Positions 11,917 to 61,771 of a stretch of DNA of 64,000 bases are shown piece after piece (the stretch's first letter is position 1; every line of letters starts with the position of its first letter). A program made the translations under genes and the position numbers. Source of the DNA: an uncultured Anaerolineales bacterium (GTDB taxonomy: Bacteria > Chloroflexota > Anaerolineae > B4-G1 > SLSP01); the NCBI GenBank assembly GCA_964504195.1, contig CAZDDI010000003.1:83380-147379 (forward strand). Direction: 5' to 3'. The notes under the pieces are model-generated. The model had not been told where the DNA came from. It ran no database searches and saw nothing but the letters and a program-made list of their open reading frames with translations.

Positions 11917-12139
11917 GGCTTACTGTATTGGTGCGTGTGCAGGAAAAACTCGTGTCTGAAGCAAAGGGGAGTCCACGGAAAAACCGCCAGCCGCTCACGT
12001 TCAGATGCACAATGCTAAGAAATTTCTGCTTCTAACGGATTCTCTTGAATATCAAAGATGCTGAATGAAGCGGATATTTGTTACTTGTTCACAATTGCAC
12101 CTGTGTTATACTCACGTTACAATTTAATAAGACTGTGCA

Positions 12140-12300
12140 TTTCCGAGTCTCTCTACCTACCGGCCAGTAGCCCAGGGGAGCGAGACCATTGGGTGTAGCG
12201 GGAAACGGCTACGCCTCCCGTATTTGAAAAGGAAGTGCGCCGCAGTGCCATAATACCTTTCCCCTAGGCAACAGCTTCATTGCTTGGGGGCAGGTAGTTA
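12140..12300 (+). ncRNA. Structured 5' leader / riboswitch candidate (possibly cobalamin-type) upstream of the BtuF/FecB-like ABC importer
   Basis: It shows nested helices: CTACCTACC...GGCAGGTAG, GTAGCC...GGCTAC, and a GGGAAAC-loop hairpin. The blocks AAGGAAGUGCG and CAGUGCCAU resemble the E. coli btuB leader. An intrinsic terminator follows just before the RBS. Confidence 0.35.
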
Positions 12301-12341: not shown

Positions 12342-12436
12342 TGTCACCTGTCTGCATCTGCAATCGCGCGCGAAGGTTTACGCTGGTGAGTGGATGTGGA
12401 TACTGATCTCAAATCTATAGACGGAGGAAATAAGAG

Positions 12437-13990
12437 ATGTCGAAAATATGGAAACAACTGTGGATAGGGCTGTTATTGGTGGTGATATTGGCGAGCTGTG
12501 CGCCCACGCCGACCACGGCGCCGCCCGAACCCTCACCTGCCACGCTCAGCCCGGCGACCCCAGAGACGCCCGCTGCAACTTTGCAAGTAAGTGGCGCGAT
12601 GGCCTCAGAACGCGCCTTTACGACGGAAGACCTCACGGCGCTGGGACTGCAAGAGTCCTTGTATACCAACCGTGATGGAGAATCTACGACCTATACGGGC
12701 GTCTCCATAGCTCTCTTGCTAAACACTGTGACGCCAGCCGCCGACGCTACCACCCTGGTCTTAGTGGCTAGTGATGGTTATGAGGCGCAAGTCCCGCTCG
12801 CTGATGCACTGGTCTGTGCGGAGTGCATTGTGGCATTTGAAGCGGATGGTAGCTTCCGCGCCGTATTGCCGGACTTCCCCGGTAATGTCCAGGTGCGCGA
12901 TTTGGTCGCGCTCCAGGTGCTGAGCGCTGCCGAAGCTCAACCCGAACCGCCCCCCACTTCCGAGGACACCATTCCCAATGATGGGCCGGTGACGATTACC
13001 GATGCTGCCGGGCGCACCGTGAGTCTGGAACAACTCCCGCGGCGCATTGTGGTCGTCGGGCGCGGCCCGTTTATGGCCCTCCATCTACTCTACATGTTCC
13101 CTGAAGGCCGTACCCGGTTGGTCGGGGCAGAAAGTCGCAGCGCCACCCCTAGCGATTTTCTACCTTACGTCCAACCGGATTTTCTGGAGCGCATCGTGGG
13201 CATGGCCGCCAATCCCAACGCGGAACAGATTGCTACGCTTGAGCCAGATTTGGTGATAATCAAGAGTGTCGCATTGGAGCAAATAGGCGAGTCCCTGGCG
13301 CAGGTCAACATTCCGGTCGTGTACCTGGGGCTGGAAACACCGGAGCAATTCTTCCAGGATGTGACCAATCTGGGGGCGTTGTTGGGCAATCCCACCCGCG
13401 CGCAGGGGATCATCGCTTTCTATCAAGCGCGCCTGGAGCGCATCGAAGCCGGCGTCGCGGATATTCCTGAGAACGAACGCCCGCGCGTGTTGCTGTTGGA
13501 GCATTCTGACCGGAGCGGGGAAGTTGCAGGCCGGGTGCCTCCGTTGGTGTGGATGCAGACCATTCAAGTCGAGGCCGCCGGCGGCGTCCCGGTGTGGCGC
13601 GAGGCTGTGCAAGTGACGGATGGCTGGACGGTGGTGAATTTCGAACAGATTGCCGCCTGGGATCCGGATAAAATTTTCATGGTGATCTCATACCAGCTCG
13701 ATCCCCAAGAGGTGATAGATGGTTTCAAAGCGGATCCGCAATGGCGTGCTCTGAGCGCGGTGCAAAATGAAGAGCTATACGCCTTCCCCGGAGACATCTT
13801 CGGCTGGGACACCCCCGAAGCCCGGTGGTTGCTCGGCGTGAACTGGTTAGCCACCCGTCTGCACCCCGAGGTTTTTGCGGATTTAGACCTCGAAACGGAG
13901 ATTTACACCTTTTTTGGCGAACTCTATGACATGGAACGGGATGTGATAGATTCTGCTATCTTGTCCCAAGTGTATCTGGATGTCCATTAG
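12437..13990 (+). CDS. ABC transporter periplasmic substrate-binding lipoprotein, FecB/BtuF (class III SBP) family, with extra N-terminal domain
   Basis: It has a signal peptide plus lipobox (LLLVVILASCAP). The C-terminal half (RIVVVGRGPFM...EPDLVIIKS...) matches iron-siderophore/cobalamin binding proteins. The roughly 200-aa N-terminal domain is of unknown function. Confidence 0.7.
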   Translation: MSKIWKQLWIGLLLVVILASCAPTPTTAPPEPSPATLSPATPETPAATLQVSGAMASERAFTTEDLTALGLQESLYTNRDGESTTYTGVSIALLLNTVTPAADATTLVLVASDGYEAQVPLADALVCAECIVAFEADGSFRAVLPDFPGNVQVRDLVALQVLSAAEAQPEPPPTSEDTIPNDGPVTITDAAGRTVSLEQLPRRIVVVGRGPFMALHLLYMFPEGRTRLVGAESRSATPSDFLPYVQPDFLERIVGMAANPNAEQIATLEPDLVIIKSVALEQIGESLAQVNIPVVYLGLETPEQFFQDVTNLGALLGNPTRAQGIIAFYQARLERIEAGVADIPENERPRVLLLEHSDRSGEVAGRVPPLVWMQTIQVEAAGGVPVWREAVQVTDGWTVVNFEQIAAWDPDKIFMVISYQLDPQEVIDGFKADPQWRALSAVQNEELYAFPGDIFGWDTPEARWLLGVNWLATRLHPEVFADLDLETEIYTFFGELYDMERDVIDSAILSQVYLDVH

Positions 13991-56656: not shown

Positions 56657-59600
56657 CTAAGCCCTTGCGGAGTCAGGTGGCGCGGTTTCAGCTGGAAGCG
56701 TGAACCAGAACGAACTGCCGCCGTCCGGGAGGCTTTCGACGCCGACTTCGCCATCGAGTTTTTTAACGATGCGCTCAACGATGGATAATCCCAAACCATG
56801 ACCTTCGGCGCGCATTTCGTGCAATCGGGTGAACTGGGTAAACAACTGGGCTTGTTCTTCCTGCGTCAGTCCCGGGCCATTATCTCGCACCCAGAATTTG
56901 ATGCTGGATACTGGAATCTGGTCAGACGATTCCCCAGCTTCTGGCAACGAAGTTTTAGCCTCCAGCATCGTGTAGCCCAATTTTACCTGTGGTGGCTGCC
57001 CGCCATACTTGAGGGCATTGCTGATGTAATTGATCCAGACTTCCTCTATCCACGGCGCGTGTCCTAGCGCTACCGGCCAATTTGTAGGGACAATAAGGTG
57101 GGTCTCATACTCCGCCAGCATGGACATCAGCCGTTTTTGCACTTCAGTAATAATCTCACCCATATCCAAAGGCCGGCGCGGTACATCTTCGATTTTGCGA
57201 ATGCCAGAGAGCAACAACAGCTCATTGATGATACTGACCATCTTGTGGCCGGTAGTTGTGATACGGTCAAGGTTTTCGCGCACAATCTGCGGGGAGAGTG
57301 CTTCCAAGCGTTGGCTCAGCAGTTCGCTAAATCCCACCACCACCGTCAGCGGATTTTTAAGGTCATGCGCAACCGTATGCGCGAACGCATCTAATTCTGT
57401 ATTGCTGGCCTGCAATTCCTCGGCATAGCGGCGCAGAGCAGCTTCAGATTCCTTACGCTCAGTAATATCTTCTTTGACTGCAACATAGTGAGTGATGGCT
57501 CCCACGTTATTCGTCAGTGGTGCGATGGTGGCTGTTTCCCAGAACAAGGTACCATCTTTGCGCCGATTGAGGAATTCACCGTGCCAGATTTTTCCGGTGC
57601 TGATGGTGTTCCACAGCGTTTTGTAATACGCCGCATCATGTTCACCTGATTTCAAAATCCGGGGGGTGTTTCCCAGCGCTTCGGCGCGCGAGTAGCCAGT
57701 CAATTCTTCAAAGCGGGGGTTGGCGTATTCAATCGCGCCCTCTGTATCTGTAATTACAACAGTGTTACCGCTTTGCTCCAGGGCCAGGAAGTATTTCCGC
57801 ATTTCATCACGGCTCCGCACTGCCCGGTCGCGTACCTCCGCCAAATCACGGGTCCGCTCAACCACGCGCCCTTCGAGCAAGTCGCGTTCCTGTTGTAACA
57901 AATTCAGAGCTTGGGTTTCCTGTTGCCAAGCTTTGTTGATACTACGCAATAGGACGCTACTTGTCATTAATAAGGTGGTTGCAGTGGCTAAGAAAACCAG
58001 CAGATTGGCTAGGCCAAACTCAATCGTTCGGGGTGCGATGGGCGTATCCACGGCGCTGGGAGGAATGTAATGGCCTCGCCCAATTTGCCAGCCAAAGCTG
58101 GCCAGGGTAAACAGACTGATGCCTAGCATAATCAAGCCGTTGCGCTGGCCGCGCAGCAGTACCGCCAGGGCGACCAGGACCAAGAAATACATAAATGCTT
58201 CGACCGAATACCCATAATATACAACTTCAGCCAAGGCTAATGTGTAGAACAACAACAAGAAGATGTTCGTGCGATAGTTGAAATTGATCTGACGTGCCAG
58301 GCTAAGTCCCCAGAGCAAGATGAGAATACAACCAAACAACAACAATATACCGATTTTGCTGGCCTCTGGAAGAATCGTGGGCGCGTGGACGAGCAGTGCC
58401 AGGGTTCCGAATAGCGCTGCGAAGCGCAGCATGATGGTAAAGGCGCGTTCCAGCGATTGGGTGAGGAGTGGGTTTGTGCCGGGGGGCGTGGTAAGATTGG
58501 GCTTTATCGCTGGCAATAACCATTTAATCAGTACCCCAAAACGGCCTAATTGAGGAATCGGTAACGGTTCCGCTGGGGGGGTAACTTCTACAGCCGGTGT
58601 CGGGGATTCATGCAGCGGTGGCTCAATCAAAGTCGCCGCGGATATAATCACCTCACGGATGACCGCAACGCGCCCCAACAAGCGTTGTTGGCGATCCTGG
58701 AGTGGCGTTATGCGCACGGCATAGCGCCGTTGCGTTTCTCCTTGCCCGACAGTAATTTCATCCTGCCCTTCCAGAACAGCTTTGAACCGTTTTGCCAGGT
58801 GCGGCCAGGGCGCCAACGCCTCCTCCACGGTTTTACCTAGCACCTGCCGGGTAGGTAGTCCAATCATGTGTGCAGCCGCAGGATTGATGTCGGCAATGCG
58901 TCCCTGGATGTCCAGCACGATCATGCCTTCACGTAAGCCTTCGATAACCAGATCCCGAGCAATCGGCGCGATATCGCCTAGGCGATAGCCGAAAACAGCC
59001 CAGGTAAGTGCAATCAGGGTGAGGGTAAAAGCGAAGGGGGTTGGGTCGAGTTCGGGGATGGGGCTAAGCCCGCTCAAATGTACGATATTGCCTAGCCAGG
59101 TGAAGATGACCGCGATAATTACAGCTACCGCTTGGGCGCGGTATAATTGCTGGCCCTGGCGTAGCGCGGATAACAAGATATAAGCACCAACCACCAGGAA
59201 GGTGTATGAAAATACCACATTGATCCAGAATCCCAGACCATAAGTGATGTCTAACACCAACAACGTATCGGTTTGCTTCAGTGCGGTTGCGCTCCAAATC
59301 AAACCATGCCATGGGTTGGTCAAAGCCAGGATCAGGGTCGTAAGCGGCCATACTATCAACCAGCGCCAATGACCAAGTGGTAAAGGGCGGAACTGATGGG
59401 TGTATGCGCGCGCAAACAGCAGCCACAAGTAGGGGATGAAGGCGATCCCCAGATACTGGAACTGGCCCCAGAAATATTTGGTGGGTAGGTCGGTCCCGGC
59501 AATCTCCAAAGCGTAGCCTAGTGCCCATAACGCAATAGCAATGGAAATTTCTACTAAGGCCATGGCTCCTTGCGCGCGGCGGCGTGGCAATACATACGCA

Positions 59601-59707
59601 GCGATCAACAGAGCAATCGCAGTAGCGACAAGTAAGGGCAGGATAAAGGGTGTATAGGTAAAATTTAACACGGTGTTCCTATAAATTCGACAAACGCAGG
59701 CCTTCAT
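56657..59707 (-). CDS. Membrane-bound multi-PAS sensor histidine kinase (7TM-type N-terminal sensor, PAS/PAC, HisKA, HATPase_c)
   Basis: Multiple TM helices at the N-terminus. PAS-like regions. H-box HDLKNPLTVVVGFSELL. Phospho-acceptor + ATPase G-boxes (GHGLGLSIV). No receiver domain. Confidence 0.8.
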   Translation of the reverse strand: MKACVCRIYRNTVLNFTYTPFILPLLVATAIALLIAAYVLPRRRAQGAMALVEISIAIALWALGYALEIAGTDLPTKYFWGQFQYLGIAFIPYLWLLFARAYTHQFRPLPLGHWRWLIVWPLTTLILALTNPWHGLIWSATALKQTDTLLVLDITYGLGFWINVVFSYTFLVVGAYILLSALRQGQQLYRAQAVAVIIAVIFTWLGNIVHLSGLSPIPELDPTPFAFTLTLIALTWAVFGYRLGDIAPIARDLVIEGLREGMIVLDIQGRIADINPAAAHMIGLPTRQVLGKTVEEALAPWPHLAKRFKAVLEGQDEITVGQGETQRRYAVRITPLQDRQQRLLGRVAVIREVIISAATLIEPPLHESPTPAVEVTPPAEPLPIPQLGRFGVLIKWLLPAIKPNLTTPPGTNPLLTQSLERAFTIMLRFAALFGTLALLVHAPTILPEASKIGILLLFGCILILLWGLSLARQINFNYRTNIFLLLFYTLALAEVVYYGYSVEAFMYFLVLVALAVLLRGQRNGLIMLGISLFTLASFGWQIGRGHYIPPSAVDTPIAPRTIEFGLANLLVFLATATTLLMTSSVLLRSINKAWQQETQALNLLQQERDLLEGRVVERTRDLAEVRDRAVRSRDEMRKYFLALEQSGNTVVITDTEGAIEYANPRFEELTGYSRAEALGNTPRILKSGEHDAAYYKTLWNTISTGKIWHGEFLNRRKDGTLFWETATIAPLTNNVGAITHYVAVKEDITERKESEAALRRYAEELQASNTELDAFAHTVAHDLKNPLTVVVGFSELLSQRLEALSPQIVRENLDRITTTGHKMVSIINELLLLSGIRKIEDVPRRPLDMGEIITEVQKRLMSMLAEYETHLIVPTNWPVALGHAPWIEEVWINYISNALKYGGQPPQVKLGYTMLEAKTSLPEAGESSDQIPVSSIKFWVRDNGPGLTQEEQAQLFTQFTRLHEMRAEGHGLGLSIVERIVKKLDGEVGVESLPDGGSSFWFTLPAETAPPDSARA

Positions 59708-59848
59708 CAGTTATTATGCCAGCATTTGTGATTTTGACAAGACATATCATCATATCTCTAAAGGGATTCTATTTCTATTGTTGACTTTACTGGAACTACT
59801 TTGAATTAGAGCAGGCAGCAACTTGCGTTGTGATATCTTGTGCTAAAA

Positions 59849-59995
59849 CGTAAGGAAATCGTAAGGAAGCCGTCAAGTAAAGGCTCCTCCCGTTTGTTAT
59901 AATATAGTCAGTATTGAGAACGGGGCCGCGATGAGATTCTCCTCCTTCTGCGAAACCGGGGGCTTTTGAAAGCCCCCGGTTTTACGTTGTCTACG
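59849..59995 (+). ncRNA. Candidate small-RNA gene unit A (direct repeats CGTAAGGAA x2, -10 TATAAT, CU-rich anti-SD-like core, intrinsic terminator)
   Basis: The elements in order are: ACGTAAGGAAATCGTAAGGAAGCCGTCAAG ... TTGTTATAATAT ... GGGGCCGC..TTCTCCTCCTTCTG ... AACCGGGGGCT-TTTGAA-AGCCCCCGGTT + TTTAC. It is repeated in tandem at 60009-60152. Confidence 0.4.
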
Positions 59996-60008
59996 TTTGT
60001 TCCATAGA

Positions 60009-60152
60009 ACGTAAGGAAATCGTAAGAAATCCGTCAAGCACAGGCTGGGTGCATGTGGTATAGTAATCTCAGATATGGGATTTGGGGCCGCACATGTTCT
60101 CCTCCTTCTGAGAAAACCGGGGGCTGGGGGAGCCCCCGGTTTTACTTTGTCT
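60009..60152 (+). ncRNA. Candidate small-RNA gene unit B (tandem copy of 59849-59995)
   Basis: ACGTAAGGAAATCGTAAGAAATCCGTCAAG ... TATAGTAAT ... GGGGCCGC..TTCTCCTCCTTCTG ... AACCGGGGGCT-GGGGG-AGCCCCCGGTT + TTTAC. Confidence 0.4.
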
Positions 60153-60166
60153 CCTTTCCGCGCCGC

Positions 60167-60194
60167 TTGACATCCACGCAGCACTCTTTACAAT
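60167..60194 (+). promoter_or_regulatory. Near-consensus sigma70-type promoter TTGACA-N16-TACAAT
   Basis: TTGACATCCACGCAGCACTCTTTACAAT. It sits about 230 nt upstream of the 60428 start codon. Confidence 0.35.
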
Positions 60195-60427
60195 GGCCTA
60201 TGGAGCAAAATTACTGGAAGGCCTTAGGTATGTATCCGAAAATTCCGTTGGCGGTGGGGTTAGGCGGGCGGTAGTGGGGTTCGGCAGGCTCACCCACCGC
60301 CTGCCGAACCCCACCATCACCTTTACGAGTTTTCGGATAGATGCTTAGCCGAGGAGATGGCTGTGCGCGTTGAGAATCCAATGCCTGTTGCTTGCTTGTG
60401 CCTGCTGAGCGCGCGAGGTGGTAAGCC

Positions 60428-61771
60428 ATGACCCCCCGCCAAACGCGCTTGTTGGTTGTGATGGCGCTGGCCGTTTTAGCCATGCTGGGCTTCTTAGGTT
60501 GGACTGTGTGGAGCACGCTTAATGCTCCTGTAAACACGGTGTCGCTCTTGCCCACGCCACTGCCGCCTTCACCCACGCCTACACCTACCCGTGATCCGTT
60601 TACCCTGACCCCTTCGCCTACACCGCCCTTTGAGATGCGCGAAACTGGCGAGATTGCCGCCGCTGTGGCTCAGGCGCGCGAACTGCTCCCCCGTTGGGAA
60701 ACCCCTTTCAACTTCGTGTCCGAGTATGAACTTAGTATCATTCTCCACTATCGTTACCAGACCGTACAACCCTTCCCCGTGCGCGAGCAGCGCACGTTGC
60801 AAATTCTCGATCTCTGGCCTGAAGGGCCGGTAAGCGTAGATGCGGTGGCTCAGGCAAAGTCTGCTGCGGCACTCTATTTACCTGAAGAGGAACAACTTTA
60901 TCTGCGCCGCGATTGGACTGGCTCCGCCGATAACTTGCGTAAATTGCTTGCCTATAGCTTCGCGCGTGCTATCCCGGAACAGCACGGCAACCTCCAACGG
61001 TTGCGCGCGGACGCTCCTACACTCGATCAACGGTTGGCCTTGGATGCGGTGGCCGAGGGGGATGCCTGGTTTTCTCTCACGCGCTATGTGGGCCTTGCTC
61101 CGGATGATCCTGCTACGGCGGAACTGTCTGCGCTTATCGCGCGGGCCGCCTATCCGCAATGGCGCGCACAAGATCCGCTGGTTTTCGACTTGAATTGGCT
61201 CGCGCTCAAGATGGGGGCGCACTTTGCTGCTGCTCGCTACGCTCAGGGGGGCATCCCCGCACTTGATGAAGCCCTGCGCCGTCCACCACGCTCTACCGAG
61301 CAGCTGTTATATCCTGACCGTTATGCCGCCGATGATCGCCCGATGCTGGTCGAACCCGTCACGCCGCCTCTGGGCCGGGGATGGCAAATTACACTGACCG
61401 AAACTCTCGGTGCAGCGATGATGCAGGTGATGTTGGAGACAGTTTTGCCGCCCAACAGCTTTGCCGTGGAAGGCTGGGGGGGCGACCTGATCCAGGTGTG
61501 GGAAGGGCCGGATGGTGCGCGTCTTTATATCTGGCAGACTGTCTGGGACAGCGGCAGCGCAGCTGCCGTGATGGTGTCACCGTTCAAGACACTGTTGCCA
61601 CAGCGCGTCGCCGCCACCGGCACGAGTGTGCTGCCCGCTGGATTGCCACGCGGACAATGGTGGACAGGGCGGCGTGGTGGGGCGTTTTTCTACCGCACCG
61701 CTAACCATATTTGGCTGATCTGGGGCGATGATCCTGATGTGGTCAAAGCTGCCACGAGCATCATTCCATGA
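60428..61771 (+). CDS. Hypothetical membrane-anchored/secreted protein with Pro/Thr-rich linker
   Basis: N-terminal TM (LLVVMALAVLAMLGFLGW), then a PTPLPPSPTPTPT linker. The remaining ~380 aa have no recognised motif. Confidence 0.5.
   Translation: MTPRQTRLLVVMALAVLAMLGFLGWTVWSTLNAPVNTVSLLPTPLPPSPTPTPTRDPFTLTPSPTPPFEMRETGEIAAAVAQARELLPRWETPFNFVSEYELSIILHYRYQTVQPFPVREQRTLQILDLWPEGPVSVDAVAQAKSAAALYLPEEEQLYLRRDWTGSADNLRKLLAYSFARAIPEQHGNLQRLRADAPTLDQRLALDAVAEGDAWFSLTRYVGLAPDDPATAELSALIARAAYPQWRAQDPLVFDLNWLALKMGAHFAAARYAQGGIPALDEALRRPPRSTEQLLYPDRYAADDRPMLVEPVTPPLGRGWQITLTETLGAAMMQVMLETVLPPNSFAVEGWGGDLIQVWEGPDGARLYIWQTVWDSGSAAAVMVSPFKTLLPQRVAATGTSVLPAGLPRGQWWTGRRGGAFFYRTANHIWLIWGDDPDVVKAATSIIP

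Follow-up and report, generated by a model that had tools for sequence, protein, structure and literature searches.

The locus considered here raises the question of what is encoded between a sensor kinase gene and a DUF8575 gene on contig CAZDDI010000003.1 of an uncultured Anaerolineales bacterium (assembly GCA_964504195.1), where two similar units follow one another head to tail at positions 59849–60146 of the 64-kb stretch of DNA that was analyzed (64,000 nucleotides, hereafter called the window). The units sit between the start of the minus-strand kinase gene (56657–59707) and the plus-strand DUF8575 gene (60428–61771). A preliminary description had taken each of them, at an estimated size of ∼145 bp, for the gene of a small RNA (sRNA) equipped with a direct-repeat operator, a −10 box, a CU-rich segment complementary to Shine-Dalgarno (SD) sequences, and an intrinsic terminator. 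The tandem pair is real, and the named elements are found at the positions given for them; the head-to-tail arrangement also stands, but the unit period is 161 bp and the span from operator to terminator is ∼137 bp in each unit. We find that the two units are members of an undescribed sRNA family, one that is new but belongs to a type of regulator already known, and that they are very probably real stand-alone sRNA genes. The reading that best fits the whole of the evidence, and one that we hold to be reasonably likely, is that they specify sibling trans-acting sRNAs that would be activated by a response regulator of the OmpR/PhoB type and would block Shine-Dalgarno sites, with the targets, the signal, and the repression all being predictions.

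Read from operator to terminator, each unit contains three direct repeats phased at 11 bp, an extended −10 box, a G-rich stretch, the 14-mer TTCTCCTCCTTCTG, and a G+C-rich hairpin ending in UUUU, and the two units can be aligned with 84% column identity over 167 columns. The 14-mer occurs exactly twice in the 64 kb (59937–59950 and 60097–60110), where 0.15 occurrences are expected with up to two mismatches and none of 100 shuffled sequences reaches two, and the 20-nt repeat pair CGTAAGGAAATCGTAAGGAA is likewise found twice in the window with at most one mismatch (0.00 expected); counts so far above expectation exclude chance as the source of the two units. A further sequence, GGGGCCGC, is common to both window units but is not kept across the family described below.

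All features of the units are on the plus strand. The operator of unit 1 (59849–59881) is made up of the direct repeats CGTAAGGAAAT, CGTAAGGAAGC, and CGTCAAGTAAA, centered at about −58, −47, and −36 relative to the predicted start, and that of unit 2 (60010–60042) of CGTAAGGAAAT, CGTAAGAAATC, and CGTCAAGCACA. In the preliminary description, each operator comprised two direct repeats CGTAAGGAA separated by AAT; the repeats are there, but the spacer is AT, giving the period of 11 bp, the second repeat of unit 2 is CGTAAGAAA, and the GTCAAG that had been listed as an element of its own is the core of a third phased repeat, CGTCAAG (59871–59877 and 60032–60038). The −10-like boxes can be defined more closely, from the sequence and from the −10 column of the family, as extended −10 boxes in both units (TGTTATAAT at 59895–59903, without a −35 consensus, and TGGTATAGT at 60056–60064), each lying 20 nt after the third repeat 7-mer. 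Because the units have no −35 element, a sigma-70 two-hexamer scan of the window detected no promoter at either of them. The predicted sRNA copy 1 is ∼75 nt long (59910–59984), with its start placed 7 nt after the −10 box and its end at the U run of the terminator (minimum free energy [MFE] of the fold −32.2 kcal/mol, z = −2.98); its conserved single-stranded block GATTCTCCTCCTTCTG, which holds the anti-Shine-Dalgarno core CCTCC(TT), is at 59935–59950 and is near-invariant in 62 aligned copies, and its fold predicts an intrinsic terminator at 59952–59983 with a 14-bp stem (59952–59965/59970–59983), a 4-nt loop, and a U run. Copy 2, also ∼75 nt (60071–60145, as placed by the covariance model and the fold; MFE −35.6 kcal/mol, z = −2.52), has the block TTCTCCTCCTTCTG at 60097–60110, preceded by TG where the family has GA, and a terminator predicted by both the fold and a terminator scan at 60113–60143, with a 13-bp stem (60113–60125/60131–60143) and a 5-nt loop. 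The perfect terminator hairpins noted earlier are therefore present, but their stems are 14 and 13 bp long, not 11 bp. At the base of both stems a run of A residues pairs with most of the U run; a simple terminator scan demanding a strict U run is passed by unit 2 but not by unit 1.

Are these units peculiar to this contig? A collection of genomes was scanned with the pattern CCTCCTT, gap, CCGGGG, gap, CCCCGGTTT, which returned 96 loci; ∼55 of these come from Chloroflexota metagenome-assembled genomes (MAGs) and have the whole architecture, and the remainder belong to other phyla, are without the operator, have nothing else in common, and score below 32 bits. A covariance model (R1) built from 47 distinct sequences gave 62 matches of 33–90 bits in the main family loci, including the two window copies (59907–59982 at 68.4 bits, E ∼1e−19, and 60069–60142 at 65.3 bits), and six further copies beside a regulator gene were found later. 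The search for homologues thus produces ∼65 further copies outside the window, carried by 44 GTDB species-representative MAGs and several metagenome contigs; the MAGs are labeled Anaerolineae, Anaerolineales, Thermoflexales, Chloroflexota, or “Chloroflexia.” In all, the family is present in at least 46 Anaerolineae-type (Chloroflexota) genomes. Operator, −10 box, invariant UCCUCCUU core, and terminator are common to all copies. Genomes carry between one and four copies, several of them with two or three locus types, and in one genome at least four copies were counted (at loci L083, L139 [two copies], and L168). A metagenome scan with TTCTCCTCCTTCTGNGAAA gave 75 loci, all but one of which (L047) were chance or coding matches, and a search for cultured carriers by way of RlmN homologues gave 120 best hits, all of them from MAGs or metagenomes. 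The organism of the window was itself seen in ENA ERZ27252295, JGI 3300033178, and SRR10872584. Rfam 15 has no match to the units at the gathering threshold in the window and no relevant match at E values up to 10 over 59600–60500, nor was there an Rfam match in 15 family loci, and literature searches on Chloroflexota and Anaerolineae sRNAs and on the core sequence found no description of such an RNA.

The seed pattern also caught a different element, in which a hairpin GCCCCGGCTGCGGCGCTGGCGCAGCCGGGGC is followed by TTACAATTCTCCTCCTTCTGCGAAATACTTCTC and a conserved stretch. It was seen in the metagenome contigs L008, L010, L027, L028, L042, L052, L063, L067, L072, and L073 and recurs several times within single contigs (BNJU01001477 and BNJU01001406). 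It probably represents, in reverse complement, the start of a strongly SD-led gene beside a terminator, and it is unrelated to the sRNA family.

The distribution of the copies bears directly on whether the units could be a remnant of a miniature inverted-repeat transposable element (MITE) or of a repetitive extragenic palindromic (REP)-like sequence, as the preliminary description had allowed, or else an accidental local duplication without function. Tandem duplication of a sequence containing inverted repeats, here the terminators, is compatible with such an origin; however, there are just two copies in 64 kb, the low copy number per genome is maintained at a few syntenic sites in at least 44 species, conservation falls into separate promoter, core, and terminator blocks, the stems changing in a compensatory manner, and no terminal inverted repeats span the unit. 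Finding few copies at syntenic sites across different contexts excludes a MITE-like repeat, and we give this whole class of explanations almost no weight.

The genomic contexts are equally informative as to whether the RNA acts in cis or in trans. In ∼30 loci (context A), the gene order on one strand is MobA/HAD-rlmN-RNA-dnaX-ybaB-recR, and in a variant of it (context A′) the order is rlmN, two RNA copies, DUF8575, and DUF218 in L176 and RNA-DUF8575-DUF218 in L004, L147, and the window; in the window, the kinase replaces rlmN upstream of the units, and neither rlmN nor dnaX is present in the 64 kb. By its DUF8575 protein, the window falls among Anaerolineae-like Chloroflexota. The DUF8575 orthologue in L004 is 66% identical to that of the window, and upstream of it lies a single unit that shares the operator, −10 box, 14-mer, and terminator of the window units. 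In context B, copies flank a response-regulator gene, and in context C (L123, L149, L168, and L126) a plus-strand RNA lies between minus-strand EamA and DUF401 genes. The conserved neighbors in relatives are thus rlmN, dnaX, or DUF8575, or an orphan OmpR-type response regulator, and the sensor kinase of the window (domain order HisKA_7TM-PAS-MASE11-PAS-HisKA-HATPase) is probably not the conserved partner. The signal recognition particle (SRP) RNA precedes dnaX-ybaB-recR in many bacteria; a small SRP RNA was considered for these loci and rejected, as it had no Rfam match in the rlmN-RNA-dnaX loci or in the window.

A cis-acting 5′ leader or attenuator of the downstream gene, which would be DUF8575 in the window and dnaX in most relatives, would explain why most copies are co-oriented with dnaX or DUF8575 and lie 60–390 nt upstream of them, why the element ends in a terminator, and why the element of type-B loci is found 60–75 nt upstream of the response-regulator gene. 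It does not explain context C, in which the RNA has no co-oriented downstream gene and, being antiparallel to both neighbors, cannot be a 5′ leader; this paralogue class speaks for action in trans, as had been proposed. Further, the DUF8575 and response-regulator genes have sigma-70 promoters of their own after the terminator, copies are also found downstream of the regulator gene, each tandem copy has a full promoter, inspection revealed no upstream antiterminator segment complementary to the 5′ arm of the terminator, and the downstream gene varies by lineage while the element is constant. In the window, the DUF8575 promoter (TTGACA-16-TACAAT, of the sigma-70 type, identified by the sigma-70 scan) is at 60167–60194 on the plus strand, outside the sRNA genes, and L004 has the same separate promoter in the same arrangement; with this promoter placed after unit 2, the sRNA genes are independent transcription units. 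We consider a leader function to be quite improbable. The promoter, operator, and terminator are kept in ∼65 copies across at least four gene contexts, and, to judge from this sequence conservation, the element is a stand-alone gene with its own promoter and terminator that is conserved independently of the flanking genes, in keeping with the plus-strand sRNA gene of the preliminary description; the predicted product is ∼75–85 nt long.

Tandem copies, each with operator, −10 box, and terminator, are found in the window and in L176, L147, L106, L124, L110, and L144, that is, in at least seven lineages. The two copies in the window are more closely related to each other (76%) than to any other copy, and so are the two in L176 (79%), from which it follows either that tandem duplication has recurred or that the copies have been homogenized.

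Column conservation across the family has four peaks (the three repeats, the −10 box, the block GATTCTCCTCCTTCTG, and the terminator), with variable sequence in between. The −35 position and the DNA upstream of it hold three CGT(C/A)AG repeats in 11-bp phase (family consensus CGTcAGgaAAg/CGTCAGrTTnn/CGTCAAGyAnn), and the −10 box, mostly TATAGT or TATATT and also TATAAT, follows the third 7-mer after 19–20 nt in 45 of 51 copies. The predicted transcript consists of a variable 5′ hairpin, the invariant unpaired block GAUUCUCCUCCUUCUG, and an intrinsic terminator; the block contains CCUCCUU and is the sole invariant transcribed sequence, so that the CU-rich segment singled out at the beginning turns out to be the most conserved block of the family, located between two helices with compensatory changes. 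Both hairpin loops have conserved G runs, the 5′ hairpin having UCGGGGG, or CAGGAAC in type B, and the terminator loop UGGGAC or UGGGGGCA, as seen in family alignment A5 (e.g., L151:5257–5336 and L119:5316–5397); window copy 1, with the loop UUGA, is without the terminator-loop motif.

Plain MAFFT alignments gave a consensus fold of only four pairs, with the 3′ arm of the terminator misaligned; the tails were then trimmed and the alignment was fitted to the covariance model. On this model-fitted alignment of 62 copies, in which the pairing figures are biased towards the structure, 98% of the cells of the terminator helix are paired with compensatory change in 9 of 10 pairs, 74.6% of those of the 5′ hairpin are paired with compensatory change in 4 of 4 pairs, and for both helices together the values are 91% of cells and double changes in 13 of 14 pairs; values this high were not attained in any of 500 column shuffles, and when the partners are slid, pairing falls to 28%–60%. 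Support that is independent of the fitted alignment comes from the raw sequences, in which divergent copies swap terminator stems (GGGAG/CUCCC, GGAGA/UCUCC, GGAAG/CUUCC, and GGUGGGGG/CCCCCACC) and keep the core. The 5′ hairpin occurs in the variants UACGG/CCGUA, UGUGG/CCGCA, and AGUGG/CCACU, and divergent second and third copies retain the operator, the −10 box, and the core. The predicted 3′ hairpin is, by its pattern of sequence change, an intrinsic terminator with a stem that is maintained by compensatory change.

These patterns also bear on the possibility that the relevant product is encoded on the minus strand, where the reverse complement of the block is an ideal SD sequence (AAGGAGGAG) that would form a strong ribosome-binding site driving a tiny open reading frame (ORF). 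Unit 2 and a few relatives do have an 8-codon ORF at the right distance (MCGPKSHI opposite unit 2), but in 20 of 52 copies, including window unit 1, no start codon is found 4–12 nt after the SD sequence, the peptides range from 3 to 36 amino acids and are not conserved, the conserved promoter elements are on the plus strand, and the changes in the variable region are of a stem-compensating and not of a codon-like kind. A minus-strand peptide is, in our judgment, highly improbable.

What would control such genes? The triple repeat occurs 51 times in the 768 kb searched, in front of these RNAs in 51 of 51 cases, and no instance of the operator in front of a protein-coding gene was found in those 768 kb; two-repeat matches in the window are at chance level. 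The idea of a regulator-binding direct repeat upstream of each unit is thereby strengthened, as the repeat is kept in sequence, in phase, and in its distance to the −10 box. In form, with 7-nt units and 4-nt spacers in 11-bp phase, a third unit that covers the −35 position of a promoter having no −35 consensus, and an extended −10 box, the repeats correspond to operators of winged-helix regulators of the OmpR/PhoB type, with the CiaR case (PMC3091779) as one point of comparison. We regard activation through the repeats by a regulator of the OmpR type as probable.

On the strength of genomic association, the best candidate for this regulator is an orphan OmpR-family protein with the recognition helix EDVLRVH(V/I)(Y/H)RLRQK, as exemplified by L185:2001–2711 or P0160. 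In the type-B loci (L047/L107 and L139), two RNA copies flank an orphan regulator gene with REC and Trans_reg_C domains on the same strand. The four closest orthologues that were fetched (64%–67% identity) adjoin glyoxalase and phosphofructokinase genes, and all have the RNA beside them, with one copy upstream in L177/178, one on each side in L184 and L185, and one upstream, at the contig end, in L186; the regulator is thus flanked or adjoined by the RNA in 6 of the 6 genomes with the closest orthologues (L047/L107, L139, L177/178, L184, L185, and L186). Each of these regulator genes has its own sigma-70-like promoter after the terminator of the upstream RNA. Where RNA copies are present on both sides, they form one-strand sRNA-regulator-sRNA cassettes (L184:1851–2908, L185:1859–2923, L047:138–1153 on the minus strand, and L139:5640–6735 on the minus strand), in which a TTGAC-N17/18-TATACT promoter of the regulator lies between the first terminator and the start codon and the downstream RNA copy, with the 5′ domain AAAACAGGAACGCACGCGAC, is always the more divergent one.

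Histidine kinases appear near the family in one further setting. In L135:4987–7035 (and in the same arrangement in L157), the gene of a REC-GAF-HisKA-HATPase hybrid kinase is preceded, at a distance of 195 nt, by an sRNA copy whose operator is degenerate. The catalytic core of this kinase is 51% identical over 281 residues to that of the 7TM-PAS kinase of the window. A link between this kinase subfamily and the sRNA system is possible, and we treat it as a lead, not as a result. Otherwise the window kinase is probably a chance neighbor, and a comparison made to tie it to the candidate regulator showed only 27% identity to the kinase encoded near a paralogous regulator. Upstream of a paralogous response-regulator gene, a 755-nt intergenic region between hrcA and the regulator (L180:1746–2500) has six or more spaced motifs that include GTGGGG, along with a long perfect hairpin, GGGGGGTGTGCGGGCGC…GCGCCCGCACACCCCCC; the sRNA covariance model has no match in this region.

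In the mechanism that we propose, a winged-helix response regulator of the OmpR/PhoB family would bind the phased repeats and recruit RNA polymerase, such that one signal would switch on all sibling copies together. The CU-rich block, whose CCUCC core is also found at the 3′ end of 16S ribosomal RNA (rRNA), would then pair with the GGAGG Shine-Dalgarno regions of target mRNAs and block binding of the 30S subunit, lowering translation and probably mRNA stability as well, and having two copies in tandem would either raise the dose or offer 5′ domains that differ slightly. Ribosome-binding sites of the GGAGG type, to which the block is complementary, are indeed used by genes in the window (e.g., at 12419, 36118, and 39876). 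Repression of translation by pairing to ribosome-binding sites, as envisaged in the preliminary description, is plausible, and as the mode of action of these RNAs we give anti-Shine-Dalgarno repression a slight preference.

A number of observations weigh against parts of this proposal. Transcription, the RNA ends, and the strand are deduced from the conservation of promoter and terminator. On the side of the regulator, its adjacency to the RNA genes amounts to guilt by association, which is suggestive and not decisive; distant homologues (57%–63% identity) are found in other contexts with no RNA copy nearby, and they have the same recognition helix as the candidate, such that DNA specificity may be common to the whole group. 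The last repeat, at 19–20 nt from the −10 box, is moreover one helical turn further away than in CiaR or PhoB promoters. On the side of the targets, no specific one emerged: the start regions of rlmN, dnaX, ybaB, recR, and DUF8575 pair with the block no better than generic SD sites do (duplex medians −9 to −14 kcal/mol for these conserved neighbors), and the extended complement of the 16-nt block (CAGAAGGAGGAGAATC, up to three substitutions) has no conserved site in 441 kb of family loci. As to the RNA itself, folding of the two segments yields the expected terminator hairpins, but the CU-rich stretch is partly masked in the predicted fold; the unpaired probability of the core is moderate (median 0.48, and 0.27 and 0.09 in the window copies), and the core can be engaged by G runs of the 5′ domain, as happens in the predicted folds of the window copies. 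The 5′ hairpin is the weaker helix even on the model-fitted alignment and is weak in window copy 1. Finally, the conserved G-rich loops (UCGGGGG and UGGGAC) are neither explained by the model nor required by the structure; protein binding and pairing with the CU-rich core are two possible roles for them.

Together, the missing specific target, the moderate accessibility of the core, and the unexplained G-rich loops keep alive a different reading, in which the RNA is real but acts as a decoy or sponge instead of by classical target pairing. In one version, it would mimic the 3′ tail of 16S rRNA (GAU..CCUCCUU.CU) and globally titrate SD sequences or a factor that binds the anti-SD tail; in another, its conserved G-rich or GGA-containing hairpin loops would sequester a CsrA-type RNA-binding protein. 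The invariance of the block extends over 14–16 nt, which exceeds the length of a typical seed, and the anti-SD core is present in it exactly, the loop motifs are kept with no structural need for them, and occurrence in multiple copies with tandem amplification is what would be expected of a titrating RNA. Yet the loop G runs are absent from some copies (window copy 1, L092, L084, and L176), the likeness to the 16S tail is weak beyond CCUCCUU, and a signal-dependent promoter fits a regulator with specific targets at least as well. We consider a decoy unlikely, but worth keeping in mind. Still more doubtful, in our view, is a class-wide form of signal-controlled “anti-Shine-Dalgarno in trans,” in which sibling CCUCCUU RNAs, co-induced by one orphan response regulator, would serve as a general throttle or decoy for SD-led initiation or for a factor reading the 16S 3′ tail, and not as regulators of a handful of mRNAs, with the G-rich loops acting as an intramolecular mask that would hold the RNA in an inactive state as long as there is no need for it; if true, no regulatory RNA system would have been defined in Chloroflexota before this one.

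Two other RNA features of the window may be mentioned. Downstream of the DUF8575 promoter, the 5′ untranslated region (UTR) of DUF8575 contains a near-perfect long hairpin of ∼119 nt (60227–60345, plus strand; MFE −71.7 kcal/mol, z = −8.2), which occurs once in the window, has no counterpart in the orthologous UTR of L004, and may be either a UTR structure or an inserted element with inverted repeats; Rfam matches at 60249–60319 are spurious microRNA-like ones caused by this hairpin. The sole gathering-level Rfam match in the window is a molybdenum cofactor (Moco) riboswitch aptamer (RF01055, 63.8 bits) at 12132–12250 on the plus strand, upstream of an ORF starting at 12437.

Anaerolineae-type Chloroflexota are abundant in sediments, digesters, and wastewater and are almost entirely uncultured, and neither Rfam 15 nor the searchable literature yielded a trans-acting sRNA described from this group. 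The value of the present locus lies less in the tandem pair as such than in the widespread unannotated family to which it leads, with its conserved operator and candidate response regulator. The family yields a covariance model, a promoter motif that should define a regulon, and a candidate regulator gene, and with these three the pathway and its post-transcriptional arm become traceable in metagenomes and metatranscriptomes without cultivation.

How does the proposed system of trans-acting, regulator-activated sRNAs relate to known ones? Several sRNA genes lie beside the gene of their own transcription factor, as in oxyS/oxyR, gcvB/gcvA, sgrS/sgrR, and qrr1/luxO, and the type-B RNA genes resemble these in directly flanking an orphan OmpR-family regulator gene in all six genomes; they differ in being co-oriented with the regulator and present on both sides of it, and the window has no such regulator gene. 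The RoxS/RsaE and 6C-type sRNAs of Firmicutes and Actinobacteria use C-rich motifs for pairing with ribosome-binding sites that are rich in G, and transcription of RoxS/RsaE depends on the response regulator ResD/SrrA. The motifs of these RNAs (CCCC/UCCC) are located in hairpin loops and the genes are single-copy in most genomes, whereas the family described here has a CU-rich linker between hairpins and no covariance-model match to them. OmrA and OmrB are encoded by adjacent tandem enterobacterial genes that have their own OmpR-activated promoters, their own terminators, and a conserved single-stranded seed, and the likeness extends to tandem duplication within one intergenic region and to activation of the OmpR type, which is proposed here. 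The Omr seed, however, is 5′-terminal and not an anti-SD mimic, and the Omr RNAs are Hfq-dependent and gammaproteobacterial; the Chloroflexota family differs in the position and type of its seed and has no Rfam match.

The closest analogue is the CiaRH-controlled group of csRNAs (cia-dependent small RNAs; ccnA–E) of Streptococcus. These RNAs have two stem-loops and an unpaired anti-SD stretch, their −10 box is preceded by a direct repeat for a response regulator, and they are present in 2–6 copies per genome (PMC3091779). In the Chloroflexota family, as in the csRNAs, very similar genes recur several times in a genome, every one of them with a separate promoter and terminator, and the predicted short RNAs would likewise have two stem-loops around an anti-SD stretch, with both helices supported by compensatory changes and a moderate predicted accessibility of the stretch. 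Both families have a −10 box with an 11-bp-phased repeat in place of a −35 element, the repeat being bound by an OmpR-family regulator in the csRNA case (PMC3091779) and the regulator being a candidate here. In both, new members are best found by promoter and terminator and not by sequence similarity (PMC3091779). Against this stand the phylum (Chloroflexota as opposed to Firmicutes), the lack of sequence or covariance-model similarity, and the operator, which here has three CGT(C/A)AG repeats, the last of them 19–20 nt from the −10 box, in contrast to the two repeats of the CiaR box, NTTAAG-N5-TTTAAG, located 10 nt upstream of the −10 box (PMC3091779). The unpaired region of the csRNAs is complementary to both SD and AUG (PMC3091779), whereas the Chloroflexota RNAs have a CCUCCUU core and anti-AUG complementarity is not conserved, and the candidate regulator has no adjacent kinase. 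Given the differences in operator sequence, repeat number, distance to the −10 box, and phylum, and with no model match, the Chloroflexota family is by this comparison not a member of the csRNA/CiaR system; it would instead represent an independent, cross-phylum reinvention of the same design, which bears on how easily a circuit of this kind evolves.

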